Shown: one piece after another, positions 10,083 to 43,851 of the stretch
Layout: every line of letters starts with the position of its first letter
How positions within the stretch are numbered: position 1 is the stretch's first letter
Source of the DNA: Ranitomeya imitator
Lineage: Eukaryota
Length of the DNA: 64,000 bases
Direction of reading: 5' to 3'
NCBI RefSeq assembly: GCF_032444005.1
Contig: NC_091285.1
Coordinates: forward strand, 56,296,001-56,360,000
Program-made: the position numbers and the translations under genes
The notes under the pieces: generated by a model
What the model saw: the letters and a program-made list of their open reading frames with translations, nothing else
What the model was told of the DNA's origin: nothing
Database searches by the model: none

Positions 10083-11833
10083 CAGTACAGACCAAAAGAT
10101 TGGACACACCTTCTCATTTAAAGATTTTTCTGTATTTCCATTACTATGAAAATTGTAAATTCACACTGAAGGCATAAAAACTATGAATTATCACATCTGG
10201 AATTATATACTTAACAAAAAAGTGTGAAACAACTGAAATTATGTCTTATATTCTAGGTTCTTCAAAGTAGCCACCTTTTGCTTTGATGACGGCTTTGCAC
10301 ACTCTTGGCATTCTCTTGATGAGCTTCAAGATGTAGTCACTGGGAATGGTTTTCACTTCACAGGTGTGCCCTGTCAGGTTTAATAAGTGGGATTTCTTGC
10401 CTTATAAATGGTGTTGGGACCATCAGTTGTGCTGTGCAGAAATCTGATGGATACACAGCTGATAGTCCTACTGAATAGACTGTTAGAATTTGTATTATGG
10501 CAAGAAAAAAGAGTGGCCATCATTAATTTAAGAAAGGAAGGTCAGTGAGTCCAAAAAATTAGGAAAATTTTGAAAGTGTCCCCAAGTGCAGTGTAAAAAC
10601 CATCAAGCGCTAGAAAGAAACTGGCTCACATGGGGACCGCCCTGGAAAGGAAGACCAAGAGTCACCTCTGCTTCTGAGGATAAGTTTATCTGAGTCACCA
10701 GCCTCAGAAATCGCAGGTTAAAAGCACCACAGATTAGAGACCAGGTCAATGCCACACAGAGTTCAAGCAGCAGACACAACTCTGCAACTGTTAAGAGGAG
10801 ACTTTGTGCAGCAGGCCTTCATGGTAAAATAGCTGCTAGGAAACCACTGCTAAGGAGAGGCAACAAGCAGAAAAGACTTGTTTGGGCTAAAGAACACAAG
10901 GAATGGACATTAGACCAGTGGAGATCTGTGCTTTGGTCTGATAAGTCCAAATTTGAGATCTTTGGTTCCAACCACGGTGTCTTTGTGCGATGCAGAAAAG
11001 TTGAACGGATGGACTCTACATGCCTGGTTCCCACCGTGAAGCATTGAGGAGGTGTGATGGTGTGGGGGTGCTGGTGACACTGTTAGGGATTTATTCAAAA
11101 TTGAAGGCATACTGAACCAGCATGGCTACCACAGCATCTTGTAGGGGCATGCTATTCCATCCGGTTTGCGTTTAGTTAGACCATCATTTATTTTTCAACA
11201 GGACAATGACCCCAAACACACCTCCAGGCTGTGTAAGGGCTATTTGACCAAGAAGGAGAGTGATGGGGTGCTATGCCAGATGACTTGGCCTCCACAGTCA
11301 CCAGACCTGAACCCAATCGAGGTGGTTTGGGGTGAGCTGGACCACAGAGTGAAGGCAAAAGGGCCAACAAGTGCTAAGCATCTCTGGGAACTCCTTCAAG
11401 ATTGTTGGAAGACCATTCCTGGTAACTACATCTTGAAGCTCATCAAGAGAATGCCAAGAGTGTGCAAAGTAGTCATCAAAGCAAAAAGTGGCTACTTTGA
11501 AGAAACTAGAATATAAGACGTATTTTCAGTTGTTTCACACTTTTTTATTAAGTATATAATTCTACGTGTTAATTCATAGTTTTTATGCCTTCAGTGTGAA
11601 TTTACAATTTTCATAGTGATGGAAATACAGAAAAATCTTTAAATGAGAAGGTGTGTCCAATCTTTTGGTCTGTACTGTAGGTCTTTATCTGAGGAATGGG
11701 CATGCTGAATTACGTAATTCCACATGTGTTAATTCATAGTTTTGATGCTTTCAGTGTGAATTAACAATTTTCATAGTCATGAAAATATAGAAAAACTTTA
11801 AATGAGGTGTGTCCGAACTTTTGGTCTGTACTG
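10083..11833 (+). mobile_element. Tc1-family DNA transposon, defective transposase, with a duplicated right end
   Basis: TA flanks at 10081-82, 11678-79 and 11834-35; ~200-bp TIRs starting CAGTACAGACCAAAAG. Broken transposase at about 10497-11516 with QQDNDPKH...SPDLNPIE motifs. Confidence 0.93.
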
Positions 11834-16329: not shown

Positions 16330-16810
16330 ACAAAGGTTAGTACAAATGGTAAACATGGAAAAAGAATGCCAAAAAATTCAACAACATATCGATCTTTAAT
16401 TTGCAAATTTACAATGTTTTTGAAATTTTTTATTTTTTATGTAGGAAGGAATCACAAATCTAGAGTGTATGAAGATATAAAATTTATTATATTTTCTGCA
16501 GTATTCTATATGGATAAGCATACACAGTCACAAGAGGTCAGTCGATCGGCACCGAACGAGCTTTCTCACATTCAGACCTCCACAAATTCTCCTTAGAGAC
16601 CAGACGAGGTAAGCTTCTTCTGAAGACGGGGCGGTGCATGCACAAGACGCAGCTGAATCACCAATACATGAGGAGATGAATGAAAGCAGCACTCACCCGT
16701 GATCTTCAATGATAATATAGTCCTTTATTGACCGTGGCTCAACATTCCCAGCTAGGAACAAGGCAGGTTACAACATGAGGAGGGAGCGGTGAGGGAGGGT
16801 GCAGAGACGA

Positions 16811-16857
16811 GACAGACGACGGCCGTTTCGCGAACAATTGCTTCAACGGGTCCAGTG
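16811..16857 (-). ncRNA. Second copy of the hammerhead motif, in the inverted pLTR
   Basis: Reverse complement of 20884-20930, with stem II GCAA instead of GCGA and a change at the outer end of stem I. Confidence 0.55.
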
Positions 16858-17468
16858 AGTTGTGTTAGTGACGTCATATCCTCTTATAGGAGTTGACGCC
16901 CTACTTACCACATATGGGTGCAATTAACAAATACTAAAAACAACATAACTCATTCTACTATCTCCACATTTTAACGGATCTAAAGGAAAACCGCCATGTC
17001 TAATTTATCGTTAAGACCCCAAGCACCTTGTGCGTCAGTTTTTAGAATCCAGTGTGCTTCGCGCTGTAATAATAATTTATTATGGTTTCCTCCTTGCTGA
17101 GGGAATTTAACTACCTCTAAGCCGGCAAAACTAAGGGTACTAGGGTCGCCACCATGCGCATCATGTATATGTTTTACCAGGCGCACACGCCCCTTCCCTG
17201 TAAGTACAGAGTTAAAGTGCTCGCGAAACCTAACCAATAGGGGTCTTATGGTTTTTCCGATATAAAAACGGTGACAAGGGCAGAAAATAACGTATACCAC
17301 AAATTTACATTTACATGTTATGAAGTCTCTAAGGAGAATTTGTGGAGGTCTGAATGTGAGAAAGCTCGTTCGGTTCCGATCGACTGACCTCTTGTGACTG
17401 TGTATGCTTACTGCTCTTTTTGGTGATCAGAGCACGAAAGGTGAGCCCCCGTCAGACCGCAATCCATT

Positions 17469-18299
17469 ATGTTGACAGATGAAATGGAAGATTTGACTAA
17501 TGGCGATGAAGCTGTTAATGGCCTTATGGCAGGCAGAGAGGGAGCGGGGCAGTTTTTTACGGATTGTAACCACAAAGATGAACTGGAGCTGATAAGCACC
17601 AAGTCCCTGGAAGTTAAAATCCAGAATCTGGCAGAAAAAGAAATTCGCCTTTATTGGACAATTAAGTCTTTAAAGTCTTATATGGATTGTAATCATGTCC
17701 CGAGAGGTTTAAGAGTATTTAAAGAGATTTCGCAGTTTAAGGAGGATCCTGGCTTCTTGAAAGCATGGGAGCAAATTCATCTTGAGTGCTCTCGAAACCT
17801 GCTACAATTAGTCACCACTCAGAATGAGAAAGACTATAAATTTATCTGTGAACAATTGGAAAAATCTAAATGTGAACTCTCCTCCCGCATAAGTGTGGAT
17901 AATTTTAGATCCTTTGAGAAAAAGTTAGAGAAAAAATTGATCGTAGTCCAGATGGACACGAAAGAAAAGAAAAAAGAGAAATTTCTCAGAGATAAGCGGG
18001 ATTTTGATTCAGGACAGATTTTTACATGGAATCAAAATAAGCCTAAAAAACCTTTTTCCCGGTTTCGTTCTAAGAAATTTTCCAAATATCAGAAAACGTC
18101 TCGCGATGGATGGATAACAGACTCAGATTCCAGCGCTACGGAGAAGGGTGGAGAAGAAGTGGCTTCCACCTCTAATGCCACACTTCCACTCCCAGCACCG
18201 GTTAAAAATCCAATCCCTTTAGGAGGAAAAAAATCCGGCGAGGTGGCAGAAGAAAAAAGCGCTTGGAAGAAACGCAAACAAGTGTCTTGGAGACGTTAG
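17469..18299 (+). CDS. PLE ORF1 / N-terminal domain (basic, coiled-coil-like)
   Basis: 276-aa ORF with VPRGLR, W-E-x-I-H-L-E-C-S and KKEKFLRDKRDF...W motifs, resembling as I recall them Neptune-type N-terminal regions. Overlaps the RT frame. Confidence 0.75.
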   Translation: MLTDEMEDLTNGDEAVNGLMAGREGAGQFFTDCNHKDELELISTKSLEVKIQNLAEKEIRLYWTIKSLKSYMDCNHVPRGLRVFKEISQFKEDPGFLKAWEQIHLECSRNLLQLVTTQNEKDYKFICEQLEKSKCELSSRISVDNFRSFEKKLEKKLIVVQMDTKEKKKEKFLRDKRDFDSGQIFTWNQNKPKKPFSRFRSKKFSKYQKTSRDGWITDSDSSATEKGGEEVASTSNATLPLPAPVKNPIPLGGKKSGEVAEEKSAWKKRKQVSWRR

Positions 18300-20761
18300 A
18301 GACACGTAGTGAGGATAGCCACACAGATGACTCGCTCCAAGTTATTAATTTATCACAAAGAATGCTCACAGAGGATCAAATAAAAGTTCTCTCACGAGGG
18401 GTTAATTTTTGTCTGCCTGAGGCTTTTGACTTAAATGATTTCAAAATTGATTTATTTAAAGGTGTTAGAAAGCTACATTTACATGAACACTTTTCTAAAT
18501 GTAAGGATAATCAGGCCAGCTCAGTCTCTACAGATACACCAGCCACAGTGGGATCATTGGGCTTTATGGTATATCCTGTTATGGATCAAGGGGATATTGA
18601 AATGAGTACACTACTAGCGGGGTTAAGTGAGGACGCTGAAGAGGTTCATGATGATCGGCAAATAGCTTTTAAACATGGTCCAGCAAACCCCTTTACAGGG
18701 GGTACAAAATCTAGCTGGATGCCTCCTATCTCACCCGGTAATAATATAGATCTTTTTCAGGAGTTGGTGATCAAAGATGTAGAGGCATTATTATATAGAC
18801 AACCTCAATCCAATTTGTCATTTGAAGAGAAAAGAGCCCTGAAAGAATTACAGAGGTGGGACGATGTAATCATTAGAAAAGCCGATAAAGGCGGTAACCT
18901 CATTATTTTGGATAAAGCGTATTACATCGAGGAGGCTTTGTCCCAACTAAATGACTCCAGCACATATTTGCTTTTACCTAATAATCCGACTAATAGGATC
19001 AAACAAAAACTAAGAACACTGTTACGAAAATATGTAGAAAAGGGGACCATTTCTAAAAAACGAACAGAAAAATTAATACCTGAATTCCCACATTTCCCTA
19101 CCTGGTACAGTATCCCAAAGATTCATAAGAATGCAGAGCGTCCCCCTGGATGCCCAATAGTTTCAGGGAAGAATTCAGTGACTGAGCCGTTATCCCAGTT
19201 TTTAGATTGGTTGTTGAAACCCCTATTGTTGAAAATACCTTCGTTCGTCAAAGATTCAGGTGACTTCTTATTGGCGCTTAAGAACTTTGTTTTGCATCCC
19301 ACCTTCGCCCTAACTTCGATAGACATTGTTAATCTGTATACGAGAATACCACAACAAAAAGGCTTGGAAGCTATCCAACGTATTCTTCTTAATACAGACA
19401 AAGATCATGACTTTGTTTCGTTTGTGCTGGAAGGACTTGAATTTGTGCTGTGCAATAACACCTTTAAATTCTTGGATAAATGGTACAGTCAAAGGGTTGG
19501 TACCTCGATGGGTACCCCGGTGGCGTGCGTTTTCGCGAACCTGTTTCTTGCAGCGTTTGAGGAGAAGCACATCACCGGAGCCCTAAATCCATACCTAAAA
19601 CATATACGCCTTTATCTGCGTTTCGCGGATGACGTTTTCATTGTGTGGGATGGAGGTGAACCCACATTTAACGATTTTGTCAGCTTCTTAAATAATAATA
19701 ACGATCAAAATATGAAATTTACGTCCGTATTTGGAGATAAGCAACTAGAATTTCTGGATGTAAAAATTGAGATAGAGGAAGGCAGTATCAAAACTAGTGT
19801 TCACAGAAAAACAACGGCGACTAATAATGTGTTGCATTTTCAGAGCGCTCATCCAGCTCACACTAAGTGTGGTATCCCATTTAGTCAGATGGTAAGATTA
19901 AGAAAAATTAATAATTGTGAGGAAAGTTACATAAAACAACTGGAGGATCTCAAATTGCGCTTCAGAAATAGAGGTTATCCCAATCACATACTGCAAAAGG
20001 CAGAACAAAGGGCCGCCAATTTAACCCAAGCTGATCTTTTAAGGAAAGGGAGAAATAAGAGTAGAGGAAATAATACGACGTTGACTAATCGTAAAGAAAA
20101 CGGGACTTTTACTTTTTTATTTAAACATAGTCCACTTGATGATAACATCCATGCAGCCATCCGAAAAAATTGGCACGTGATTAAAAATGATACCGCTTTT
20201 CGCGATTTAACCACCTGTATCCCGCGTTTTGCCTATAAACGAACAGTAAATTTGGGCGACTTGGTAGTAAAGCACCGGCTGTCTGCTGATACCAGCAGCT
20301 GGATCAAAAAATCGCTCCCGCAAGGTAATTTCAGGTGCGGTGGTTGCAAAATGTGTCACCTCCATAATATTACTAATCCCCTCAAAATAGGCACTTTTTT
20401 TCATTTCGTAAAAGACTTCATAACATGTAAATGTAAATTTGTGGTATACGTTATTTTCTGCCCTTGTCACCGTTTTTATATCGGAAAAACCATAAGACCC
20501 CTATTGGTTAGGTTTCGCGAGCACTTTAACTCTGTACTTACAGGGAAGGGGCGTGTGCGCCTGGTAAAACATATACATGATGCGCATGGTGGCGACCCTA
20601 GTACCCTTAGTTTTGCCGGCTTAGAGGTAGTTAAATTCCCTCAGCAAGGAGGAAACCATAATAAATTATTATTACAGCGCGAAGCACACTGGATTCTAAA
20701 AACTGACGCACAAGGTGCTTGGGGTCTTAACGATAAATTAGACATGGCGGTTTTCCTTTAG
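18263..20761 (+). CDS. PLE reverse transcriptase + Cys-rich linker + GIY-YIG endonuclease
   Basis: 832-aa open frame: IRKADKGG, PKIHK, GTSMG, RFADD (RT); CGGCKMC linker; VVYVIFCPCHRFYIGKT (GIY-YIG). The listed start is a TTG; the frame is open from 18206. Confidence 0.92.
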   Translation: MEETQTSVLETLETRSEDSHTDDSLQVINLSQRMLTEDQIKVLSRGVNFCLPEAFDLNDFKIDLFKGVRKLHLHEHFSKCKDNQASSVSTDTPATVGSLGFMVYPVMDQGDIEMSTLLAGLSEDAEEVHDDRQIAFKHGPANPFTGGTKSSWMPPISPGNNIDLFQELVIKDVEALLYRQPQSNLSFEEKRALKELQRWDDVIIRKADKGGNLIILDKAYYIEEALSQLNDSSTYLLLPNNPTNRIKQKLRTLLRKYVEKGTISKKRTEKLIPEFPHFPTWYSIPKIHKNAERPPGCPIVSGKNSVTEPLSQFLDWLLKPLLLKIPSFVKDSGDFLLALKNFVLHPTFALTSIDIVNLYTRIPQQKGLEAIQRILLNTDKDHDFVSFVLEGLEFVLCNNTFKFLDKWYSQRVGTSMGTPVACVFANLFLAAFEEKHITGALNPYLKHIRLYLRFADDVFIVWDGGEPTFNDFVSFLNNNNDQNMKFTSVFGDKQLEFLDVKIEIEEGSIKTSVHRKTTATNNVLHFQSAHPAHTKCGIPFSQMVRLRKINNCEESYIKQLEDLKLRFRNRGYPNHILQKAEQRAANLTQADLLRKGRNKSRGNNTTLTNRKENGTFTFLFKHSPLDDNIHAAIRKNWHVIKNDTAFRDLTTCIPRFAYKRTVNLGDLVVKHRLSADTSSWIKKSLPQGNFRCGGCKMCHLHNITNPLKIGTFFHFVKDFITCKCKFVVYVIFCPCHRFYIGKTIRPLLVRFREHFNSVLTGKGRVRLVKHIHDAHGGDPSTLSFAGLEVVKFPQQGGNHNKLLLQREAHWILKTDAQGAWGLNDKLDMAVFL

Positions 20762-20883
20762 ATCCGTTAAAATGTGGAGATAGTAGAATGAGTTATGTTG
20801 TTTTTAGTATTTGTTAATTGCACCCATATGTGGTAAGTAGGGCGTCAACTCCTATAAGAGGATATGACGTCACTAACACAACT

Positions 20884-20930
20884 GACTGGACCCGTTGAAG
20901 CGATTGTTCGCGAAACGGCCGTCGTCTGTC
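20884..20930 (+). ncRNA. Minimal hammerhead ribozyme variant in the PLE pLTR
   Basis: Stem I GAC(T)GGAC/GTCTGTC; core CCGTTGAA; stem II GCGA-TTGT-TCGC; GAAA; palindromic stem III ACGGCCGT; GTC cleavage triplet at 20921-20923. Confidence 0.65.
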
Positions 20931-22715
20931 TCGTCTCTGCACCCTCCCTCACCGCTCCCTCCTCATGTTGTAACCTGCCTTGTTCCTAGCTGGGAATGTT
21001 GAGCCACGGTCAATAAAGGACTATATTATCATTGAAGATCACGGGTGAGTGCTGCTTTCATTCATCTCCTCATGTATTGGTGATTCTATATGGATAATAT
21101 ATCCCAAAAGTACCGTCCTATAAACTCTCAATAATTGTGATATTTGGCATATCAATTCTTCAGATAAGAACCTTCAGTCTCTCAAATAGAAGATGATCCG
21201 TAGGAAATTTTAACATCAATCATTGAATCAATTGTGTAAAGGAAACAACTGCTTTTAATCCAGTGCAATTTCACTGTCATTAAATTGATTCTTCATATAT
21301 TTTACTGAGAGAAAATCAGGTCTGTGTAGTCTTGCTCCAAAAAGTCAGTATAAGGGTTCTGTGTTTTACAGTAACTGATTTTCTGTAATCTCACGCGCAG
21401 TGCCAATTGACCAATGTTTTGCATTTTAAATAAAAAAACAGGTCAGTTTATCCTGATGATGTCATTGATAGTGTGCATTTCATCCATTACAATGTTTTAG
21501 GGACATGACTCGACGGTGGTGGTGAGGTTTGCATCGCCGTCCTAAACACCTTGTTACTTTACCCCTGATTGCGTCAGTGCTTTGTAGTAGTTTTATGATT
21601 ACCCATTTTCTGGCCACAAGTATGAGAACTAGAGTTGAGCGACCTTGACCTTTTTAGAGTCGAGCCGGGTTTTGCGAAACCCGACTATGTCCAAAGTCGG
21701 GTCGAGTGAAATCGGCCGATTATGACGTAAAGTCGGGATCGACCGAAACACGAAACCCAATGCAAGTCAATGGGGCAGCATAGTCGGCAGTGAGTGGGGG
21801 CCAGGAAAACACCTAGAGTGGCCATTTTAATGTCAAAACCATCCATTCTTCTTAATGAAGCTTGTCAAGCGTAATTTACCTTATAATAATTGGAAGGCAT
21901 TTGAAATTGGGGGTCATTTGGCTAAAGTTGTGGGGGGTAGGGCTGGTTCAAGTAATTAGTGGGCCCAGGAAATCTGGACCACGTCACGGCAGTGGAGCAG
22001 GGAGAGGTAAGTATTTCAACTTTGCAAGTGCTGTGAACCTGAGCAAGCAGGGGGGGCCCACTCGTTGGCATTGGCACTGGCACAGGGCCCCTCAAAGTAC
22101 AGCGGTGTGTTTGCACGGCGGGGGCGCCTCCCACCGGCAGCAACACTTTTGCGTACTATGAGAGGCCCTGTGCCAGTGACGTCGCCAACTAGTATTCCTC
22201 CCCCCACCTGATGAAGGAACCTGCACTTTCATCTGCACCTTCCTCTTTGTCCCCGTGTAAGGTGGTATGGTATGCGGGAAGAGCAACCTGACTTTCAGCA
22301 GGGTCACAATGTTGTTGTGTAGCGTGCACGGGGAATGTTGCGTTATGGGTCAATGTACCAGCAGACTCATCTATCACTGGCTGGGCAATGGGCACGATGA
22401 AGTGGAAACACAGATATAGGCCCAAAGAAGAAAGTGGGCTAAATGCAGTTCAAAATTGGTAACACAGGAATAACCAGGGGGCATTGCAGTGGAGGACAAC
22501 TGGAATGAGAGGCTGACACAGAGAGTAGGGCCAAATCAGTAAGTAGTCGAAATGCAGTTCAAAATTGGCAACCGTAGTAAACAGGCGGCACAGCTTTGTT
22601 CAGTGGAGGAGAACAGCAAGGAGTGGCAGACACCGATAGTAGGCCCCAAACCAACTAGTACGCCAAATGCAGTTGTTCCATTTAACCACAATTTAATGAG
22701 AGCCTGAAGATAGAA

Positions 22716-23925
22716 GCTCAGGAAAGGCAACCTGGGGAACACCTTGGAGTGTAACACACCATCTCTCTCCACCCCATACCCATTTTGTATGGCCTAATGC
22801 AGTGTACTTTTCTACAACTACTAAACGAGAGTCGGAAGACCGAAGCAATGGCAAGGAAACCTGGGGAACACCTTAGAGTGTAACACACCCTCTCTCTACA
22901 CCCCATACCCAATTTGAAGGCCTAATGCAGTGTAGTTTCCAAGAACTACTAAACGAGAGCCGGAAGATCGAAGCTCAGGAAAGGCAACCTGGGGAACACC
23001 TTGGAGTGTAACACACCCTCTCGCTACACCCCATACCCAATTTGAAGGCCTAATGCAGCGTAGTTTCCAACAACTACTAAACGAGAGCCGGAAGATCGAA
23101 GCTCAGGAAAGGCAACCTGGGGAACACCTTGGAGTGTAACAAACCCTCTCTCTACACCCCATACCCAATTTGTAGGCCTAATGCAGCGTAGTTTCCGACA
23201 ACTACTAAACGAGAGCATGAAGATCGAAGCTCAGGAAAGGCAACCTGGGGAACACCTTGGAGTGTAACACACCCTCTCTCTACACCCCATACCCAATTTG
23301 TAGGCCTAATGCAGCGTAGTTTCCGACAACTACTAAACGAGAGCCGGAATATCGAAGCTCAGGAAAGGCAACCTGGGGAACACCTTGGAGTGTAACACAC
23401 CCTCTCTCTACGCCCCATACCCAATTTGTAGGCCTAATGCAGCGTAGTTTCCGACAACTACTAAACGAGAGCCGGAATATCGAAGCTCAGGAAAGGCAAC
23501 CTGGGGAACACCTTGGAGTGTAACACACCCTCTCTCTACACCCCATACCCAATTTGAAGGCCTAATGCAGTGTAGTTTCCAAGAACTACTAAACGAGAGC
23601 CGGAAGATCGAAGCTCAGGAAAGGCAACCTGGGGAACACCTTGGAGTGTAACACACCCTCTCGCTACACCCCATACCCAATTTGAAGGCCTAATGCAGCG
23701 TAGTTTCCAACAACTACTAAACGAGAGCCGGAAGATCGAAGCTCAGGAAAGGCAACCTGGGGAACACCTTGGAGTGGAACACACCATCTCTCTACACCCC
23801 ATACCCAATTTGAAGGCCTAATGCAGAGTAGTTTCCAAGAACTACTAAACGAGAGCCGGAAGATCGAAGCTCAGGAAAGGCAACCTGGGGAACACCTTGG
23901 AGTGTAACACAACGTCTCTCTACAC
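22716..23925. repeat. 128-bp tandem array inside the hAT (about 9.5 units)
   Basis: GCTCAGGAAAGG recurs at 22973, 23101, 23229, 23357, 23485, 23613, 23741 and 23869. Confidence 0.95.
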
Positions 23926-24377
23926 GACGGAAGGGCTGATTCTTAGGAAGGAAGGCTGTTGGAAATAAGCATTGCGCGTCCGAGGGTGATTATATTCTTA
24001 TTAGGTATATACTCACCCTCGGACGCGCCCTGCTTCTTTATTTGGAATGAATGTTTATTTGCAATGTGGTGTTGACTTTCTCTATTATTTTGGTAATTAA
24101 TGATTTTATTATTTTCATTATTTTGCATCTTCTCGGCAATAATATAAAGAAGACGCGACAGGACAACACTCGGTGGATGCCATATGTGTGTTTTCAATTT
24201 AAAAAAACTTTCAGTTAACTACTTGCAGGAGAAAGTAATTGTAGCTGGTGGCCATTTTTAGTACTGTACCAGATTAGAGTTGTGTGTTTGTTTTTAATGT
24301 TAAAATGTCTGCATTTGATATCTCACCAGTATTTTCTTTTTTATAAGCAAAATACTTATTTTTATATTTTCTGATGT

Positions 24378-27375
24378 TGGTTCCAGGGGTACACGGCCAG
24401 CAGTGCCCTGGTCAGTGTAGTAGTAGTTGAAAGAATGGACCGCAGACAGGCATCGAAGGCCTAAAATAATAACACATGGCTGTAGGCAATTTTAAATTGG
24501 TTCCAGGGGTACACGGACAGCAGTGGTGTGGTCAGTGGAGGCCTAGTGGAAGGAGTGACCGCAGACAGGCATCGAAGGCCTAAAATAATAACACATGGCT
24601 GTAGGCAATTTTAAATTGGTTCCAGGGGTACACGGGCAGCAGTGACCTGGTCAGTGTAGTAGTAGTTGAAAGAATGGACCGCAGACAGGCATCGAAGGCC
24701 TAAAATAAAAAAATTGGGCTGGCTGTAGGCAATTTTAAATTGGTTCCAGGGGTACACGGGCAGCAGTGGTGTGGTCAGTGGAGGCCTAGTGGAAGGAGTG
24801 ACCGCAGACAGGCATCGAAGGCCTAAAATAATAACACATGGCTGTAGGCAATTTTAAATTGGTTCCAGGGGTACACGGGCAGCAGTGACCTGGTCAGTGT
24901 AGTAGTAGTTGAAAAAATGGACCGCAGACAGGCATCGAATGCCTAAAATAATAACACATGGCTGTAGGCAATTTTAAATTGGTTCCAGGGGTACACGGGC
25001 AGCAGTGACCTGGTCAGTGTAGTAGTAGTTGAAAGAATGGACCGCAGACAGGCATCGAAGGCCTAAAATAAAAAAATTGGGCTGGCTGTAGGCAATTTTA
25101 AATTGGTTCCAGGGGTACACGGACAGCAGTGGTGTGGTCAGTGGAGGCCTAGTGGAAGGAGTGACCGCAGACAGGCATCGAAGGCCTAAAATAATAACAC
25201 ATGGCTGTAGGCAATTTTAAATTGGTTCCAGGGGTACACGGACAGCAGTGACCTGGTCAGTGTAGTAGTAGTTGAAAGAATGGACCGCAGACAGGCATCG
25301 AAGGCCTAAAATAAAAAAATTGGGCTGGCTGTAGGCAATTTTAAATTGGTTCCAGGGGTACACGGGCAGCAGTGGTGTGGTCAGTGGAGGCCTAGTGGAA
25401 GGAGTGACCGCAGACAGGCATCGAAGGCCTAAAATAATAACACATGGCTGTAGGCAATTTTAAATTGGTTCCAGGGGTACACGGACAGCAGTGGTGTGGT
25501 CAGTGGAGGCCTAGTGGAAGGAGTGACCGCAGACAGGCATCGAAGGCCTAAAATAATAACACATGGCTGTAGGCAATTTTAAATTGGTTCCAGGGGTACA
25601 CGGACAGCAGTGACCTGGTCAGTGTAGTAGTAGTTGAAAGAATGGACCGCAGACAGGCATCGAAGGCCTAAAATAAAAAAATTGGGCTGGCTGTAGGCAA
25701 TTTTAAATTGGTTCCAGGGGTACACGGACAGCAGTGGTGTGGTCAGTGGAGGCCTAGTGGAAGGAGTGACCGCAGACAGGCATCGAAGGCCTAAAATAAT
25801 AACACATGGCTGTAGGCAATTTTAAATTGGTTCCAGGGGTACACGGACAGCAGTGGTGTGGTCAGTGGAGGCCTAGTGGAAGGAGTGACCGCAGACAGGC
25901 ATCGAAGGCCTAAAATAATAACACATGGCTGTAGGCAATTTTAAATTGGTTCCAGGGGTACACGGACAGCAGTGACCTGGTCAGTGTAGTAGTAGTTGAA
26001 AGAATGGACCGCAGACAGGCATCGAAGGCCTAAAATAAAAAAATTGGGCTGGCTGTAGGCAATTTTAAATTGGTTCCAGGGGTACACGGGCAGCAGTGGT
26101 GTGGTCAGTGGAGGCCTAGTGGAAGGAGTGACCGCAGACAGGCATCGAAGGCCTAAAATAATAACACATGGCTGTAGGCAATTTTAAATTGGTTCCAGGG
26201 GTACACGGACAGCAGTGGTGTGGTCAGTGGAGGCCTAGTGGAAGGAGTGACCGCAGACAGGCATCGAAGGCCTAAAATAATAACACATGGCTGTAGGCAA
26301 TTTTAAATTGGTTCCAGGGGTACACGGACAGCAGTGACCTGGTCAGTGTAGTAGTAGTTGAAAGAATGGACCGCAGACAGGCATCGAAGGCCTAAAATAA
26401 AAAAATTGGGCTGGCTGTAGGCAATTTTAAATTGGTTCCAGGGGTACACGGGCAGCAGTGGTGTGGTCAGTGGAGGCCTAGTGGAAGGAGTGACCGCAGA
26501 CAGGCATCGAAGGCCTAAAATAATAACACATGGCTGTAGGCAATTTTAAATTGGTTCCAGGGGTACACGGACAGCAGTGGTGTGGTCAGTGGAGGCCTAG
26601 TGGAAGGAGTGACCGCAGACAGGCATCGAAGGCCTAAAATAATAACACATGGCTGTAGGCAATTTTAAATTGGTTCCAGGGGTACACGGACAGCAGTGAC
26701 CTGGTCAGTGTAGTAGTAGTTGAAAGAATGGACCGCAGACAGGCATCGAAGGCCTAAAATAAAAAAATTGGGCTGGCTGTAGGCAATTTTAAATTGGTTC
26801 CAGGGGTACACGGACAGCAGTGGTGTGGTCAGTGGAGGCCTAGTGGAAGGAGTGACCGCAGACAGGCATCGAAGGCCTAAAATAATAACACATGGCTGTA
26901 GGCAATTTTAAATTGGTTCCAGGGGTACACGGACAGCAGTGGTGTGGTCAGTGGAGGCCTAGTGGAAGGAGTGACCGCAGACAGGCATCGAAGGCCTAAA
27001 ATAATAACACATGGCTGTAGGCAATTTTAAATTGGTTCCAGGGGTACACGGACAGCAGTGACCTGGTCAGTGTAGTAGTAGTTGAAAGAATGGACCGCAG
27101 ACAGGCATCGAAGGCCTAAAATAAAAAAATTGGGCTGGCTGTAGGCAATTTTAAATTGGTTCCAGGGGTACACGGGCAGCAGTGGTGTGGTCAGTGGAGG
27201 CCTAGTGGAAGGAGTGACGGCAGACAGTCTTCGAAGGCCTAACATAACAAAATTGGGCTGACTGTAGGCACTTTTAAATTGGTTCCAGGGTAACACGGCC
27301 AGCAGTGGCCTGGTCAGTGTAGTAGTTGTAGAAAGAAGGGACCGCAGACAGGCTTCGAAGGCCTAACATAACAAA
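24378..27375. repeat. 119/124-bp satellite array inside the hAT (about 25 units) with a 362-bp higher-order repeat
   Basis: Two monomer types, X (124 bp) and Y (119 bp). X starts at 25226, 25588, 25950, 26312, 26674 and 27036. Confidence 0.95.
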
Positions 27376-27834
27376 AATGTCAAAACAATGGTATTGTCAG
27401 TGCCAGGCATTGAAGGATGTCAGCGGCTAGACTACACATTGGTGAAGCTGTGAGAGATAATTTTGCTAGTGGTAGAGCACTGTTTGAGCTGGGGGGGGAA
27501 CTGTCTTGTGGCCGGCGGTACAGGCACAGGGCCCCTCATATTACAACGGTGTGTCTGACGTTGGGTGCGCACCACCACCGCCAGAGACACTTTATTGTAC
27601 TATGAGGGACCCAGTGGCAGTGCCGTCGACCAAAAGCGGCCACACCCACCTCTTCAGACAAACAGCACTCTCAAGGGTCCAAGCGCAAAGTGGCGATAGC
27701 ACGGCCCCGTGTGGGGAGTTTGGCCATTTCGTGAGGTGGAAACATGTCGTATGCTGGACAATCAGGTGAAGAAAATTACGAGATTGGAAAAGTCATTCAG
27801 AATAGTCCACAGGCAAGACCTTTTCATAGGAAAG

Positions 27835-30800
27835 CTAGGTGTCAGCCGGGCAGGGTGGGGCAAAAGATTTTGAAATCCAGTTGTGGTTCATTTTAATGAA
27901 GGTTAGATCATCTACATTTTGGGTAGCCAGACGAGTCCTTTTTTCTGTTAGTATTGAACCTGCAGCACTGAATACTCTTTCTGATAGGACACTAGCTGCC
28001 GGGCAAGCAAGCTCCTGCAATGCATATTCTGCCAATTCTGGCCAGGTGTCTAATTTGGATGCCCAGTAATCAAATGGGAATGACGGTTGAGGGAGAACGT
28101 CGATAAGGGATGAAAAATAGTTTGTAACCATACTGGACAAATGTTGTCTCCTGTCACTTTGAATTGATGCTGCAGTACCTGTCCTGTCTGCGGTCATAGA
28201 AAAATCACTCCACAACCTGGTCAGAAAACCCCTCTGTCCAACGCCACTTCTGATTTCTGCCCCTCTAACACCTCTGGTCTGCTGGCCCCTGGAGCTCGTG
28301 TGAGAACGATCACGGGCGCTGTGTGCAGGGAATGCCAGAAGCAAACGGTCAACAAGAGTTGATTGTTTTGTTGCTAATATTAGTTCCAAGTTCTCATGTG
28401 GCATAATATTTTGCAATTTGCCTTTATAGCGAGGATCAAGGAGGCAGGCCAACCAGTAATCGTCATCGTTCATCATTTTTGTAATGCGTGTGTCCCTTTT
28501 GAGGATACACAAGGCATAATCCGCCATGTGGGCCAAAGTTCCCGTTGTCAAATCTGCGGTTGTGCTTGGTTGAGGGGCAGTTGCAGGCAAATCTACGTCA
28601 CTTGTGTCCCTCAAAAAACCAGAACCCGGCCTTGCCACGCCACCAATTTCCCGTGCCCCCGGGAAAGCTTCCTCATTAAAAATATACTCATCCCCATCAT
28701 CCTCCTCATCCTCCACCTCCTCTTCGCCCGGTACCTCGTCATGTACACTGCCCTGACCAGACAATCGCTGACTGTCATCAAGGCTTTCCTCTTCCTCTGG
28801 TGCAGACGCCTGATCCTTTATGTGCGTCAAACTTTGCATCAGCAGACGCATTAGGGGGATGCTCATGCTTATTATGGCGTTGTCTGCACTAACCAGCCGT
28901 GTGCATTCCTCAAAACACTGAAGGACTTGACACATGTCTTGAATCTTCGACCACTGCACACCTGACAACTCCATGTCTGCCATCCTACTGCCTGCCCGTG
29001 TATGTGTATCCTCCCACAAAAACATAACAGCCCGCCTCTGTTCGCACAGTCTCTGAAGCATGTGCAGTGTTGAGTTCCACCTTGTTGCAACGTCTATGAT
29101 TAGGCGATGCTGGGGAAGGTTCAAAGAACGCTGATAGGTCTGCATACGGCTGGAGTGTACAGGCGAACGGCGGATATGTGCGCAAAGTCCACGCACTTTG
29201 AGGAGCAGGTCGGATAACCCCGGATAACTTTTCAGGAAGCACTGCACCACCAGGTTTAAGGTGTGAGCCAGGCAAGGAATGTGTTTCAGTTGGGAAAGGG
29301 AGATGGCAGCCATGAAATTCCTTCCGTTATCACTCACTACCTTGCCTGCCTCAAGATCTACAGTGCCCAGCCACGACTGCGTTTCTTGCTGCAAGAACTC
29401 GGACAGAACTTCCGCGGTGTGTCTATTGTCGCCCAAACACTTCATAGCCAATACAGCCTGCTGACGTATGCCAGTAGCTGCCCCATAATGGGAGACCTGG
29501 TGTGCAACAGTGGCAGGTGCGGATGGAGTGTTTGTGCGACTGCGGTCTGTGGACGAGCTCTTGCTTCTGCAGGAGGACGAGGAGGAGGAGGAGGAGGGGG
29601 TGCGAACGGCTACAGACAACTGTTTACTAGACCGTGGGCTAGGCAGAACTGTCCCAAACTTGCTGTCCCCTGTGGACCCTGAATCCACCACATTTACCCA
29701 GTGTGCCGTGATGGACACGTAACGTCCCTGGCCATGCCTACTGGTCCATGCATCTGTTGTCAGGTGCACCTTTGTGCTCACAGATTGCCTGAGTGCATGG
29801 ACGATGCGCTCTTTAACATGCTGGTGGAGGGCTGGGATGGCTTTTCTGGAAAAAAAGTGTCGACTGGGTAGCTCGTAGCGTGGTACAGCGTAGTCCATCA
29901 GGTCTTTGAAAGCTTCGCTTTCAACTAACCGGTAGGGCATCATCTCTAACGAGATTAGTCTAGCTATGTGGGCGTTCAAACCCTGTGTACGCGGATGCGA
30001 GGCTAAGTATTTCCTTTTTCTAACCATAGTCTCATGTAGGGTGAGCTGGACTGGAGAGCTGGAGATCGTGGAACTAGCGGGGGTGCCGGTGGACATGGCA
30101 GACTGAGAGACGGTGGGAGATGGTATTGTTGCCGCCGGTGCCCTAGATGCAGTGTTTCCTACTACGAAACTGGTGATTCCCTGACCCTGACTGCTTTGGC
30201 CTGGCAAAGATACCTGCACAGATACAGCAGGTGGTGCGCTAAATGGTGGTCCTACACTGCCGGAAGGGATGTTGCGTTGATGACTAGCTTCATTGGCCGA
30301 GGGTGCAACAACCTTAAGGGACGTTTGGTAGTTAGTCCAAGCTTTCAAATGCATGGTGGTTAAATGTCTATGCATGCAACTAGTATTGAGACTTTTCAGA
30401 TTCTGACCTCTGCTTAAGGAAGTAGAACATTTTTGACAGATGACTTTGCGCTGATCAATTGGATGTTGTTTAAAAAAATGCCAGACTGCACTCTTTCTAG
30501 CATCGGATACCTTTTCAGGCATTGCAGACTGAGCTTTAACCGGATGGCCACGCTGTCCTCCACCAGGTTTTGGCTTTGCCACGCGTTTTGGGCAAGATAC
30601 GGGCCCGGCAGATGGAACCTGTGGCGATGTTGATGCCTGCTGCGGCCCCTCCTCCTCCTCTGCTTCAGAACTGCTGCCGCCTGCACCCTGTTCCCCCAAT
30701 GGCTGCCAATCGGGGTCAAGAACTGGGTCATCTAATAACTCTTCTTGTACCTCCTGCGCAACTTCGTCTGTGTCACCGTGTCGTTCGGTGGTATAGCGTT

Positions 30801-31410
30801 CGTGATGGGGCAACATAGTCTCATCAGGGTCTGATTCTTGATCAGCACCCTGCGAGGGCAATGTTGTGGTCTGAGTCAAAGGACCAGCATAGTAGTCTGG
30901 CTGTGGCTGTGCGTCAGTGCACTCCATGTCAGATTCAATTTGTAATGGGCATGGACTGTTAACTGCTTCACTTTCTAAGCCAGGGACGGTATGTGTAAAG
31001 AGCTCCATGGAGTAACCCGTTGTGTCGCCTGCTGCATTCTTCTCTGTTGTTGTTTTTGCTGAAGAGGACAAGGAAGTGACTTGTCCCTGAACGTGAACAT
31101 CCACTAACGACGCGCTGCTTTTACTTTTACCAGTTTCACGAGATGAGGCAAAAGAGCTAGAGGCTGAGTCAGCAAGATAAGCCAAAACTTGCTCTTGCTG
31201 CTCCGGCTTTAAAAGCGGTTTTCCTAATCCCAGAAAAGGGAGCGTTCGAGGCCTTGTGTAGCCGGACGACGAACCTGGCTCCACAGCTCCAGACTTAGGT
31301 GCAATATTTTTTCCCCCACGACCACCTGATGCTCCACCACTACCACTACCCTCATTACCAGCTGACAATGAACGCCCCCGGCCACGACCTCTTCCACTAG
31401 ACTTCCTCAT
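27835..31410 (-). CDS. hAT transposase (BED zinc finger, DDE core, hATC dimerisation domain), 1191 aa
   Basis: BED finger SAVWHFF...C..C...H....H; LTTDAW, VSDNGRN, CLAHTLNL (CxxH), SERVFS; C-terminal RLATQNVDDLTFIKMN. No stops. Confidence 0.94.
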   Translation of the reverse strand: MRKSSGRGRGRGRSLSAGNEGSGSGGASGGRGGKNIAPKSGAVEPGSSSGYTRPRTLPFLGLGKPLLKPEQQEQVLAYLADSASSSFASSRETGKSKSSASLVDVHVQGQVTSLSSSAKTTTEKNAAGDTTGYSMELFTHTVPGLESEAVNSPCPLQIESDMECTDAQPQPDYYAGPLTQTTTLPSQGADQESDPDETMLPHHERYTTERHGDTDEVAQEVQEELLDDPVLDPDWQPLGEQGAGGSSSEAEEEEGPQQASTSPQVPSAGPVSCPKRVAKPKPGGGQRGHPVKAQSAMPEKVSDARKSAVWHFFKQHPIDQRKVICQKCSTSLSRGQNLKSLNTSCMHRHLTTMHLKAWTNYQTSLKVVAPSANEASHQRNIPSGSVGPPFSAPPAVSVQVSLPGQSSQGQGITSFVVGNTASRAPAATIPSPTVSQSAMSTGTPASSTISSSPVQLTLHETMVRKRKYLASHPRTQGLNAHIARLISLEMMPYRLVESEAFKDLMDYAVPRYELPSRHFFSRKAIPALHQHVKERIVHALRQSVSTKVHLTTDAWTSRHGQGRYVSITAHWVNVVDSGSTGDSKFGTVLPSPRSSKQLSVAVRTPSSSSSSSSCRSKSSSTDRSRTNTPSAPATVAHQVSHYGAATGIRQQAVLAMKCLGDNRHTAEVLSEFLQQETQSWLGTVDLEAGKVVSDNGRNFMAAISLSQLKHIPCLAHTLNLVVQCFLKSYPGLSDLLLKVRGLCAHIRRSPVHSSRMQTYQRSLNLPQHRLIIDVATRWNSTLHMLQRLCEQRRAVMFLWEDTHTRAGSRMADMELSGVQWSKIQDMCQVLQCFEECTRLVSADNAIISMSIPLMRLLMQSLTHIKDQASAPEEEESLDDSQRLSGQGSVHDEVPGEEEVEDEEDDGDEYIFNEEAFPGAREIGGVARPGSGFLRDTSDVDLPATAPQPSTTADLTTGTLAHMADYALCILKRDTRITKMMNDDDYWLACLLDPRYKGKLQNIMPHENLELILATKQSTLVDRLLLAFPAHSARDRSHTSSRGQQTRGVRGAEIRSGVGQRGFLTRLWSDFSMTADRTGTAASIQSDRRQHLSSMVTNYFSSLIDVLPQPSFPFDYWASKLDTWPELAEYALQELACPAASVLSERVFSAAGSILTEKRTRLATQNVDDLTFIKMNHNWISKSFAPPCPADT

Positions 31411-31649
31411 TGTTTTAAAAACGTAACCAAACTAACGTTATTTGTTGCAGTCACACAACTTACACGGTGAGCTATAACTTCAGTATGATTTAGCTACCCC
31501 TTTACAGGTTGGTGAGACCACAGCGAAAATCAGGCCCAATGTTACACACTCTTTTTTTGGTGGCTGCAAATTAGAGAGATGCCCCACACGCAGGACTGTC
31601 ACTGAAGCACAAATGTTAATATTAATGTCACACTATTATTTTTTTTTTA

Positions 31650-39423: not shown

Positions 39424-41029
39424 CAGTGGGGCAAAAAAGTATTTAGTCAGTCAGCAATAGTGCAAGTTCCACCACTTAGAAAGATGAGAGGCGTCTGTAA
39501 TTTACATCATAGGTAGACCTCAACTATGGGAGACAAACTGAGAAAAAAAAATGCAGAAAATCACATTGTCTGTTTTTTTAACAATTTATTTGCATATTAT
39601 GGTGGAAAATAAGTATTTGGTCAGAAACAAACAATCAAGATTTCTGGCTCTCACAGACCTGTAACTTCTTCTTTAAGAGTCTCCTCTTTCCTCCACTCAT
39701 TACCTGTAGTAATGGCACCTGTTTAAACTTGTTATCAGTATAAAAAGACACCTGTGCACACCCTCAAACAGTCTAAATCCAAACTCCACTATGGTGAAGA
39801 CCAAAGTGCTGTCAAAGGACACCAGAAACAAAATTGTAGCCCTGCACCAGGCTGGGAAGACTGAATCTGCAATAGCCAACCAGCTTGGAGTGAAGAAATC
39901 AACAGTGGGAGCAATAATTAGAAAATGGAAGACATACAAGACCACTGATAATCTCCCTTGATCTGGGGCTCCACGCAAAATCCCACCCCGTGGGGTCAGA
40001 ATGATCACAAGAACAGTGAGCAAAAATCCCAGAACCACGCGGGGGGACCTAGTGAATGAACTGCAGAGAGCTGGGACCAATGTAACAAGGCCTACCATAA
40101 GTAACACACTACGCCACCATGGACTCAGATCCTGCAGTGCCAGACGTGTCCCACTGCTTAAGCCAGTACATGTCCGGGCCCGTCTGAAATTTGCTAGAGA
40201 GCATTTGGATGATCCAGAGGAGTTTTTGGAGGATGTCCTATGGTCTGATGAAACCAAACTGGAACTGTTTGGTAAAAACACAACTTGTCGTGTTTGGAGG
40301 AAAAAGAATACTGAGTTGCATCCATCAAACACCATACCTACTGTAAAGCATGGTGGTGGAAACATCATGCTTTGGGGCTGTTTCTCTGCAAAGGGGCCAG
40401 GACGACTGATCCGGGTACATGAAAGAATGAATGGGGCCATGTATCGTGAGATTTTGAGTGCAAACCTCCTTCCATCAGCAAGGGCATTGAAGATGAAACG
40501 TGGCTGGGTCTTTCAACATGACAATGATCCAAAGCACACCGCCAGGGCAACAAAGGAGTGGCTTCGTAAGAAGCATTTCAAGGTCCTGGAGTGGCCTAGC
40601 CAGTCTCCAGATCTCAACCCTATAGAAAACCTTTGGAGGGAGTTGAAAGTCCGTGTTGACAAGCGAAAAGCCAAAAACATCACTGCTCTAGAGGAGATCT
40701 GTATGGAGGGATGGGCCAACATACCAACAACAGTGTGTGGCAACCTTGTGAAGACTTACAGAAAACGTTTGACCTCTGTCATTGCCAACAAAGGATATAT
40801 TACAAAGTATTGAGATGAAATTTTGTTTCTGACCAAATACTTATTTTCCACCATAATATGCAAATAAATTGTTAAAAATACAGACAATGTGATTTTCTGG
40901 ATTTTTTTTTCTCAGTTTGTCTCCCATAGTTGAGGTCTACCTATGATGTAAATTACAGACGCCTCTCATCTTTTTAAGTGGTGGAACTTGCACTATTGCT
41001 GACTGACTAAATACTTTTTTGCCCCACTG
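39424..41029 (+). mobile_element. Tc1-family transposon (DD34E), full length
   Basis: TA TSDs; ~215-bp TIRs CAGTGGGGCAAAAAAGTATTTAG; 1606 bp. Confidence 0.95.
39791..40813 (+). pseudogene. Tc1 transposase, 340 codons with a single in-frame TGA at codon 57
   Basis: ATG at 39791; TGA at 39959-39961. WSDE, HDNDPKH and SPDLNPIE motifs with D-34-E spacing. Confidence 0.9.
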
Positions 41030-41211
41030 TATATAGTAAATTATCAGTAAGTTGTCATTGTTAATTTTTCATCTACATATAGAAAGTAGACCCTAATAGC
41101 AAGTGATTAGCTCCTGAAAAAAAGTTGTTCCTAAATGACAAATAATTCTAGGAATCACAAAGCGCATATTACAGACCCTTATACAACATGCAGAAAGTGA
41201 AAACATCTTAC

Positions 41212-43604
41212 CTGTTCTGCGCTTGAGGAAGTTTCTTTGAGACATTCAGTTCCTTGTTCTGTATTTTCAGCATCAATCAGGTTTTCCACAGGAACATTTC
41301 CAATAGGATTCATGTAAGTAAAGTCACCCTCAGTAGGATCCAGTGCCACACACATATTATATGAGTATGGTAAAGGTAACGATCCATCACTATACATGGA
41401 GAAGGTCCTGGGATCAATTGGAGGATACAGATTTGTAGTGAGAGAAGAGAAGGCCGGTAATGGTTTTGGCTGCTTACATTTGGATATAATCGCCACCATT
41501 ACAGTTATTATAAAGAGCAAAGAAATAAGTGCAAGTCCAACCACTAAGTAAAATTGTAAGTATCTTTGAGTTCCATCATCTTTCTCATTGTTGCTGAGCT
41601 TAGGAACAACCTGCTGAAAGTCATCTGCAATAATAAGACTTAAGGTGGTTGTAGCAGAGAGAGTGGGATGTCCATTGTCCTTCACCATCACCACAACCTT
41701 GTAATTCAATATGTCTCTTTCTTGAAAGATACGTGATGTTCTGATCTCACCTGTGTACTCACTTATCACAAAATGAGTTAAGTCTGACATCTGTATCAAA
41801 TGATAAGAAAGCCATGAATTATGTCCAGAGTCTGCATCCACTGCCACTACTTTAGTTATTAAAGAACCAGGCTCAGAAGCAAAAGGCACCATCTCAAACA
41901 CAGCCGACCCTCCAACACCTGGTGATGGGAACAAGATCTTTGGTGCATTATCATTCTGGTCCACTATATGGATAAATAATGTAACATTGCTGCTCAGAGA
42001 GGGGGATCCATTGTCTGAGGCTGTGACTTCTATTATAAACTCCTTGTTCTGCTCATAATCAAATGATCTTTGAGCATAGAGAACTCCGGTCTCTATATTG
42101 ATGGAGAGATAAGATGTCATTGATGGAGTTTCTGTAACGGTGCTAGAAATTGAGTAAATAATTCTAGCATTGTCTCCAGTGTCAGGATCTGAGGCTTGTA
42201 TACTGAATATTGAAGCTCCTGGTAAATTGTTCTCTGGCACATAAGCCACATAAGTAGATTTAGTAAATATTGGTGGGTTGTCATTGACATCTGATACATC
42301 CAATGTGAGAACTCGTGTACTGGAAAGAGGAGGAGATCCTCTATCTGTGGCTATAATGGAGATATTATAAGAAGATGTTTTCTCTCTGTCTATGGCAGCA
42401 CTTAACACAAGTCTATAGTAAGTGTTTGATGATAATAAATTAAAAGGAACATCTTCAAGTATTTGGCAGTCAACATCTGCATTATCTCCAGAATCTTGGT
42501 CGTGAACCTCAATCAGAGCGATCATTGTTCCAGGAACAGAATCCTCAGGAATAGGAGAAGATAATGAGGTGATGGATATCTCAGGAGCATTGTCATTTAC
42601 ATCCATAACTTCCAGCAGAACTTTACAATGAGCTACAAGGCCTCCGCCATCCTTCGCTTGTACAGACAACTCATAATTCTTTCTTGTTTCAACATCTAAG
42701 TTTCCATTGATCTTGATTTCACCAGTATTTGGGTTAATACTAAATATTCCCGTATGATGGATATTTCCAGATATTTTAATAAAAGAATATGTGATCTGAG
42801 CATTGATCCCTTCATCATTGTCTGTAGCATTTAATATGATCACTGTAGAATTAACTGGGATGCTTTCCTTTAACTTGACTTTATACAAATTTTGTCATTG
42901 GCATCTATAACAATGATCTTTAATAATGTTGTTCCAGACCGGACAGGATTTCCTCCGTCCAAGGCTGTTAGTATTAATTTATGAGTGCCTTGTCTCTCTC
43001 TATCCAATGGTTTCTCCAGGACAAGCTCTGGATATTTACTCCCATCTGTTCTGATATTCTCAGTAAGTGTAAAATACTGATTATCACTGAGCTTGTATGT
43101 CTGCACTGAATTACTACCAATATCTGGATCATCTGCATTTTGTAAAGAAAATCTTGCTCCTGGTGATGTCAGTTCAATTATTTCCAAAGTAATTGAATTG
43201 TGATAGAACTGTGGAGCATTATCATTTATATCCTGAATGTCAATTTTAATATTAAAATTATTGAAAGGATTTTCAACCACAGCATCAAATGTTAAGAAAC
43301 ATGAAGCCTCCGCACCACACAATGTCTCTCTGTCTATCCTGTCCTTTATATAAATGTTTCCATTATCCATATTTACATAGAAATATCTCTCTGCTGATCT
43401 GGATACAATCCTCAGTTTTCTAGATGAGAGATGATTATTATCTAATCCAAGGTCATCTGCAATATTTGCTATAACAGAGTCTTTCCTCATCTCTTCTACA
43501 ATGGAATAATGAATCTGACCTGAGACTGAATAATGAAGATAAGAGAATAAAACATATATTACTTGCCATCTGATTCCTTTGTAGCCCTGTATAGGAGATT
43601 CCAT
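41212..43604 (-). pseudogene. pcdhg: Protocadherin gamma variable exon with a frameshift at the EC2-EC3 linker
   Basis: At 42886-42891, 6 nt (CAAATT) replace the 25 nt found in paralogs (net -19). The frame stops at 42870-42872 (DANDKICIKSS*). The donor at 41212/41211 is intact. Confidence 0.88.
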
Positions 43605-43851
43605 CTTGTCCATTTTTACTGATGATCTTGCATAAAATATCCAATCAGACTTTATCATCCAATGTAGTGTTAAACAAAACCAATGTTCATGATCGTGATA
43701 TCTGTAGTTTGGTTTATATATTGTAGCCTAAGCTCTACATCCAAGAAAATCCAGCAAATGTCTGTGGTTCTTTCTGCAGATCAGCAATGTGAGTAACAAA
43801 GGAAAATACCGGTGGATTTTTAGTTTTGCATTTTTCTTTTAACTGGTTAAA

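Follow-up and report, generated by a model that had tools for sequence, protein, structure and literature searches.

A conserved C_CCU_UUA heptamer as the probable −1 frameshift site between ORF1 and the RT-endonuclease of a Neptune-type Penelope-like element in a frog

The reverse transcriptase-endonuclease (RT-EN) of the Penelope-like element (PLE) described here is very probably made by programmed −1 frameshifting at the heptamer C_CCU_UUA (18215-18221), without a conserved RNA structure found behind the site, as judged by comparison with related copies and families. The element lies in a 64,000-nucleotide stretch of Ranitomeya imitator DNA (contig NC_091285.1), hereafter the window, to which all positions refer. 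The window is a cadherin-repeat exon cluster with five long ORFs (one of them split), broken up by transposons, and the insertion sits between two protocadherin-like exons, recognized by the flanking cadherin-repeat ORFs. Its outer parts are as follows.

16503..16517, +: left TSD copy ATTCTATATGGATAA, a direct repeat (100%) with ends blurred by microhomology
16515..21086, +: whole Penelope-like (Neptune-type) insertion, from inverted arms, TSD and self-BLAST (99.7%)
16515..17328, −: inverted partial copy comprising the end of EN, the pseudo-LTR and the 5′ leader; inverted arms in a PLE-typical arrangement
20886..20926, +: minimal hammerhead-like motif in the pseudo-LTR, from a pattern count over fetched loci
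21012..21017, +: AATAAA in the pseudo-LTR, a candidate polyadenylation signal from sequence, with inferred function
21083..21097, +: right TSD copy, a direct repeat

The TSD, the inverted copy of the 3′ end, still 99.7% identical, and the two open frames mark the insertion as young. In the tandem copies L004 and L010, pseudo-LTR, leader and ORF1 follow one another in direct order, and the pseudo-LTR is thus found in the tandem or inverted arrangement that characterizes EN+ PLEs. The hammerhead-like motif, for which the Min-HHR description in PMC4209133 was used, has the variant core CCGUNGA, a covarying stem II, a palindromic loop and GUC, and an Rfam search returned no real match to it. A second copy of the motif lies at 16815-16855 (−), and the motif as a whole, with its variant core, covarying stem II and palindromic loop (GGCC, GATC, AGCT), recurs in many families. 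In line with the candidate polyadenylation signal, contigs from sequencing runs cease matching the element at 21044-21046.

Between these parts lie two overlapping frames and the sequences proposed to link them.

17469..18299, +: ORF1, 276 aa; open frame 17445-18299, first ATG 17469, TAG 18297
18206..20761, +: ORF2, the RT-EN frame, 851 aa; shifted by −1 from the ORF1 frame, which it overlaps by 94 nt
18215..18221, +: slippery heptamer C_CCU_UUA, then an invariant G; predicted −1 frameshift site
18221..18259, +: −1-frame basic linker RRKKIRRGGRRKK, with −1-frame selection from the heptamer on
18227..18233, +: second heptamer A_AAA_AAA; present, not conserved (26 of 69 loci, 3 of 29 families)
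18234..18267, +: previously proposed stem; no better than shuffles, in 1 of 29 families, 0 consensus pairs
18267..18290, +: 0-frame tail motif KKRKQVSW (RVxF-like, NLS-like), only in the unshifted ORF1 protein

ORF2 contains an RT domain (FADD motif 19622-19633), a Cys linker that reads CGGCKMC, in the CX2-5CxxC pattern, at 20336-20356 upstream of the endonuclease, and a GIY-YIG endonuclease (about 20438-20710); in Pfam it matches RVT_1 below the cut-off (E 7e-4) and GIY-YIG above it (E 9e-5). This order of RT, linker and GIY-YIG is the Neptune/Nematis layout of PMC8557442, the source also of the linker pattern, and points by architecture to the Neptune type, the RT tree covering own-genome families only. 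The catalytic motif is FADD or FVDD in the CCCTTTA clade and mostly YIDD in its sister clades. At 19151, within a conserved RT motif, this copy has GCPIV, where relatives have GRPIV or GHPII, which is probably a private substitution.

The layout set out in the original prediction is borne out in several respects. The RT frame is −1 relative to ORF1 and directly preceded by a TAA at 18203-18205; both heptamers, CCCTTTA at 18215-18221 and AAAAAAA at 18227-18233, are present as X_XXY_YYZ in the ORF1 phase; the RT frame lacks a nearby ATG, the first lying 47 codons past the heptamer, behind a conserved INLS motif; and the fusion, put at about 1,100 aa, is computed as 1,097 aa. The TAA itself is not conserved, the −1 frame opening 0-156 nt before the heptamer in distant families. 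Phased heptamers occur 26 times per 6,468 ORF1 codons elsewhere, so that one would be expected by chance in a 29-codon overlap with p ~0.11 and two with p ~0.006. As a single copy is weak evidence, the reality of the signal rests on the conservation of CCCTTTA. A canonical EN+ PLE has a single ORF; here, two frames are found in the CCCTTTA clade and a single ORF only in a sister clade.

Conservation was followed through the 5.96 Gb genome. A DNA search gave 41 matches, and all 30 loci fetched from it carry CCCTTTAG. From the 150 matches of a protein search, 70 loci were examined (the top 30 and 40 hand-picked for spread, with a few insertions included twice), and CCCTTTA stands at the same spot in 69 of them, at ORF1 identities of 54-100%; since some loci were fetched twice (e.g. 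L051/L062), these counts are not independent events. The frame layout is −1 in 63 of the 70, +1 in six and 0 in one, and the +1 and frame-0 exceptions resemble decayed copies with indels or stops. The ORF1 stop of intact copies ends 76-85 nt beyond the heptamer. The suggested check, an alignment of other copies, finds the two-frame layout kept, both among copies that are 97-99% alike and in families whose ORF1 identity falls to 54%. Only one of the two heptamers put forward is conserved with it, namely C_CCU_UUA, the A7 run not being so.

Codon usage in 29 families bears on what is being conserved; these families are related and were chosen for having the CCC heptamer, and so provide no independent test of its presence. 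The heptamer codons are CCT in all 29 and TTA in 28, and eight different codons supply its leading C as their third base. In the rest of both ORFs, a single codon is kept at none of 40 invariant residues of four- or sixfold degeneracy and the third base at none of 186 other variable columns, which indicates that the constraint at the heptamer acts on nucleotides rather than on protein. From the heptamer on, variation falls at −1-frame third positions and the sequence encodes R[RK]K[IT]RRG[GR]R; judged by this pattern, selection changes to the −1 frame right after the heptamer. A −1-frame stop lies directly before CCC in three loci (L084, L088 and L094), and these stops, together with the third-position variation that follows, pin entry into the −1 frame to the heptamer. 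The RRGG/RR motif of the −1-frame linker is found in all three split clades. The core of the original prediction, a −1 frameshift joining ORF1 to RT-EN, is thereby strongly supported at the level of sequence comparison.

More distant relatives were sought by fishing the genome with four ORF1 homologues, and 95 loci were examined, eight of them unpaired. Among the 87 paired loci, 71 are −1, 15 are fused single ORFs and one is +1, and a phased heptamer lies in the overlap of 61 of the 71 −1 loci (19 AAAAAAC, 25 TTTTTTA, 16 CCCTTTA and 1 CCCTTTT). Single-ORF families with the ORF1 domain in frame with RT (L172, L174-L178, L180-L183, L188-L190, L193 and L195) coexist with split ones. At about 30% RT identity, the sister clades carry U_UUU_UUA or A_AAA_AAC at the equivalent place, the former being the slippery heptamer of HIV. 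An RT tree built by a quick method from 36 rows (30 of the 44 split families and six fused ones, own-genome families only, without an outgroup) gave four clades, the three heptamer types and the fused families, each supported and at about 30% RT identity from one another; support does not extend to the branching order of the clades, nor to an order of gain and loss of the frameshift. The fused families group on a branch apart (SH-aLRT 100), and their existence shows that an ORF1-RT fusion is a natural product. Three textbook heptamers at one place, together with an in-frame clade, are predicted by −1 frameshifting and not by splicing or reinitiation.

In the proposed mechanism, ribosomes would start at ATG 17469 and most would read to TAG 18297, yielding a 276-aa coiled-coil ORF1 protein that ends in KKRKQVSWRR. 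A minority would slip, tRNA-Pro moving from CCU to CCC and tRNA-Leu from UUA to UUU, to produce a 1,097-aa ORF1-RT-EN fusion organized like the single-ORF relatives (coiled coil, Ser-rich stretch, basic linker, INLS, RT); with the shift, the RVxF-like tail would be lost and an Arg/Gly-rich linker gained. The simplest reading would be slippage at a low rate on nothing but the heptamer, with ORF1 protein in excess over enzyme. Slippage without a stimulator would be expected at a low rate, a few percent at most; because a stimulator, usual in classic −1 signals, was not found, slippage here could be near background.

A canonical −1 signal combines a phased heptamer, which is present here, with a stimulatory stem-loop or pseudoknot 5-9 nt downstream, which was not found. 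A search covering nested local pairing detected no conserved downstream fold within about 70-110 nt of the heptamer, and RNAalifold returned 0 consensus pairs in 21 sequences. The mean z of downstream folding is +0.14 over 28 CCCTTTA families (one of the 28 below −2) and +0.17 over 10 TTTTTTA families, and some folding is seen only among the AAAAAAC families, 2 of 5 of which are below −2. The AAAAAAC-type families L159 and L163 form a stable hairpin behind the heptamer (z −3.75 and −2.33), which sets them apart from the CCCTTTA clade. About three-quarters of the 66 nt that follow the heptamer are purines. As for the stem formed by TCCGGCG and CGCTTGGA, its arms can indeed pair as proposed (−5.1 kcal/mol), but its z is +0.89, 166 of 200 shuffles are as good and it occurs in 1 of 29 families; folding of 18225-18310, as suggested, gave a z of −0.73.

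Other stimulators were considered in the same families. A G-quadruplex was rejected, a two-tier pattern occurring in 2 of 29 families and a three-tier pattern in none. In 27 of 29 families, the ORF1 stop falls 23-26 codons after the UUA codon, equal to about 2.5 ribosome footprints and not one, and a ribosome queue behind the stop as a stimulator is neither supported nor excluded. As to a hungry UUA codon, the element often uses TTA for Leu (5 of 23 Leu codons in ORF1, 26 of 95 in ORF2).

A point against frameshifting is that the heptamer and its invariant G read YYYYYYAG, like a splice acceptor, so that splicing from a donor within ORF1 could join ORF1 to the RT frame. The invariant AG/G behind a pyrimidine run fits this reading, as does the statement in PMC8557442 that PLEs can keep introns. 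The surroundings of the site speak otherwise: the pyrimidine share averages 0.48 in the 20 nt upstream, 17 of 29 families have a further AG no more than 12 nt upstream, the phase needed is found in none of the eight commonest donor-like columns, and no AG stands at the site in L104 (CCCTTTT g), in 10 loci with TTTTTTA t or in 19 with AAAAAAC. Run contigs of X1, X3 and X10, from three studies, span the junction unspliced; their type is uncertain and none is on record as RNA, and since such contigs drop rare isoforms, they weaken splicing rather than exclude it. We consider splicing very unlikely. X3 contigs cover a protocadherin exon without its flanks, as an RNA library would. Relative to this copy, the contigs of X1, X3 and X10 share a G-to-A difference at 18225, close behind the heptamer, as well as about 40 further ones, which suggests that one other copy supplies most of the run-contig signal.

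RT-EN could also be translated independently of ORF1, like ORF2 of many LINEs, through reinitiation, leaky scanning or a start that is internal or non-AUG, and in a few families (e.g. L052 and L081) an ATG does overlap the ORF1 stop as ATGA. However, no RT start codon is conserved, 16 of 29 families have their first −1-frame Met more than 100 codons downstream, in the window this Met follows INLS, −1-frame selection begins at the heptamer and hence upstream of the ORF1 stop, and the heptamers in three clades and the fused clade would be left unexplained, which makes a separate start highly improbable. Still less credible is a shift, by ribosomal or polymerase slippage, at the A-run 18227-18233 with help from the proposed stem: this family does have a phased A_AAA_AAA in 26 of 69 loci, with single-base indels in L011, L016 and L017, but the run is in 3 and the stem in 1 of the 29 families, and the stem is not unusually stable. 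The A-run may add minor leakage in this family only. That a private indel has split what was one ORF in this copy, as the 15 single-ORF loci in the genome might suggest, is refuted by the −1 layout and heptamer shared among the fetched copies and families and by the separate branch of the fused families, and has next to no probability left.

On the frameshift reading, ORF1 would be the major product. Its predicted structure comprises three long helices (26-73, 94-140 and 143-180) and a disordered tail, consistent with a coiled coil. There is no Pfam family match to ORF1, no PDB fold match to its model at E<=0.001 (Foldseek), and an ESM Atlas search with the homologue P0001 gave weak coiled-coil rows only. 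A profile search found 997 homologous proteins, and 128 of the best 150 are stand-alone proteins of 180-400 aa; among named relatives, the closest come from frogs (77% in Ranitomeya imitator, 42% in Dendropsophus, with Engystomops, Hyla and Xenopus further out). In single-ORF families, ORF1 is present as the N-terminal coiled-coil domain, read in one frame with RT. As in retroviral and totiviral gag-pol, an X_XXY_YYZ heptamer near the end of ORF1 would give a minor enzyme fusion, but neither a capsid fold nor a zinc knuckle was found in ORF1 by Pfam, model and PDB search, and no conserved 3′ stimulator was found; the earlier description "gag-pol-like" therefore suits the expression logic and not the protein.

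The overlap is coded twice, and the 0-frame tail is of nearly fixed length. Its KKRKQVSW motif, which we take to fit the RVxF consensus, is matched by an ending of the same type in 28 of the 29 families, as well as in homologues of ORF1 that belong to other frogs. An RVxF pattern occurs in 48 of 101 library ORF1 tails, compared with 7.4 in shuffles (maximum 15 across 500 shuffles), and the motif falls in the low-pLDDT tail of the model, as expected of a disordered region. In favor of the frameshift, footprints FL/KN/PL lie near the end of 39 of the 101 tails, compared with 4.6 in shuffles. RVxF is the docking motif of PP1 regulators (10.1101/753004), and we hypothesize that the ORF1 tail is a putative PP1 binder. 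The RVxF-like motif is downstream of the slip site in the CCCTTTA clade and upstream of it in three of five AAAAAAC families and some fused families. A vertebrate Neptune switch may be tentatively imagined, though we hold it to be rather doubtful, in which a stimulator-free −1 shift at clade-specific heptamers would separate an unshifted ORF1 with a PP1-recruiting RVxF tail from a shifted product with the Arg/Gly linker and the enzyme. If true, it would mean that a retrotransposon enlists a phosphatase of its host, and it would provide a natural vertebrate model for −1 frameshifting that is structure-independent (or protein-stimulated).

Frameshifting in PLEs is not new as such. EN+ PLEs are described as having a single ORF in the abstract of PMC8557442, whereas the legend of its Fig. 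1 states that ORF1 is separated by a frameshift with a pseudoknot in some PLEs; the part of its supplement searched gave no match for pseudoknot or slippery. The frog element resembles the PLEs of the legend in its coiled-coil ORF1 upstream of RT and the frameshift proposed to join them, but it also encodes an endonuclease, and its heptamer is not followed by a conserved sequence able to form a stem or pseudoknot. We presume the legend's elements to be the EN-less Athena/Terminon elements. As far as that legend goes, then, a frameshifted ORF1 with a pseudoknot is already known in some PLEs, and the frog element would be an endonuclease-bearing variant without a conserved structure. Neptune clade PLEs (PMC8557442) likewise have RT, a Cys-rich linker, a C-terminal GIY-YIG and a pseudo-LTR with an inverted 5′ copy, as well as a hammerhead-like motif, for which the frog pseudo-LTR offers a candidate, but a single ORF, whereas the frog element has a coiled-coil ORF1 in the 0 frame, RT-EN in the −1 frame and an invariant heptamer. 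The killifish Neptune repeat.CL27 (PMC12602865) also has an unexplained ORF1 upstream of RT-GIY-YIG; its ORFs are called non-overlapping, after ATG-based ORF finding, and the word "frameshift" is absent from the main text. The only CCCUUUA precedent found is C_CCU_UUA of giardiavirus, an assignment disputed in PMC8230311. Esterases in Neptune-like PLEs are mentioned in PMC5408684, and the part examined of the review PMC5009743 does not mention Penelope. Our literature search found no slippery heptamer in EN+ PLEs and no RVxF in a PLE ORF1; Arkhipova 2006 and 2017 may cover them.

A conserved frameshift would set the ratio of structural to catalytic protein and guide the choice of protein to express for reconstitution of a telomerase-related element. 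A heptamer kept over many families without a fold offers a compact case in which −1 frameshifting without a stimulator can be put directly to the test, and the RVxF-like motif a first handle on the host-cell role of an unannotated ORF1. EN+ PLEs are mostly annotated as one ORF and their protein is thereby mis-called, the RT frame appearing without a start and ORF1 being listed in databases as an unrelated host gene. The PLE ORF1 products P0001, P0007 and P0002 go under host-gene names (kinesin-related, UPF3B-like) or have been joined to alpha-2-macroglobulin exons by gene prediction.

Elsewhere in the window, the protocadherin-like exon at 41179-43727 (−) is split by a frameshift near 42880, representing a pseudogene or an assembly error, and its four neighbors are intact. 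By inspection, an intact 1,198-aa ORF at 27835-31431 (−) resembles a BED-finger hAT transposase, and long tandem arrays (about 22400-27400) adjoin it; a Tc1-like transposase ORF lies at 39962-40813 (+), with a decayed relative at 10739-11498 (+).
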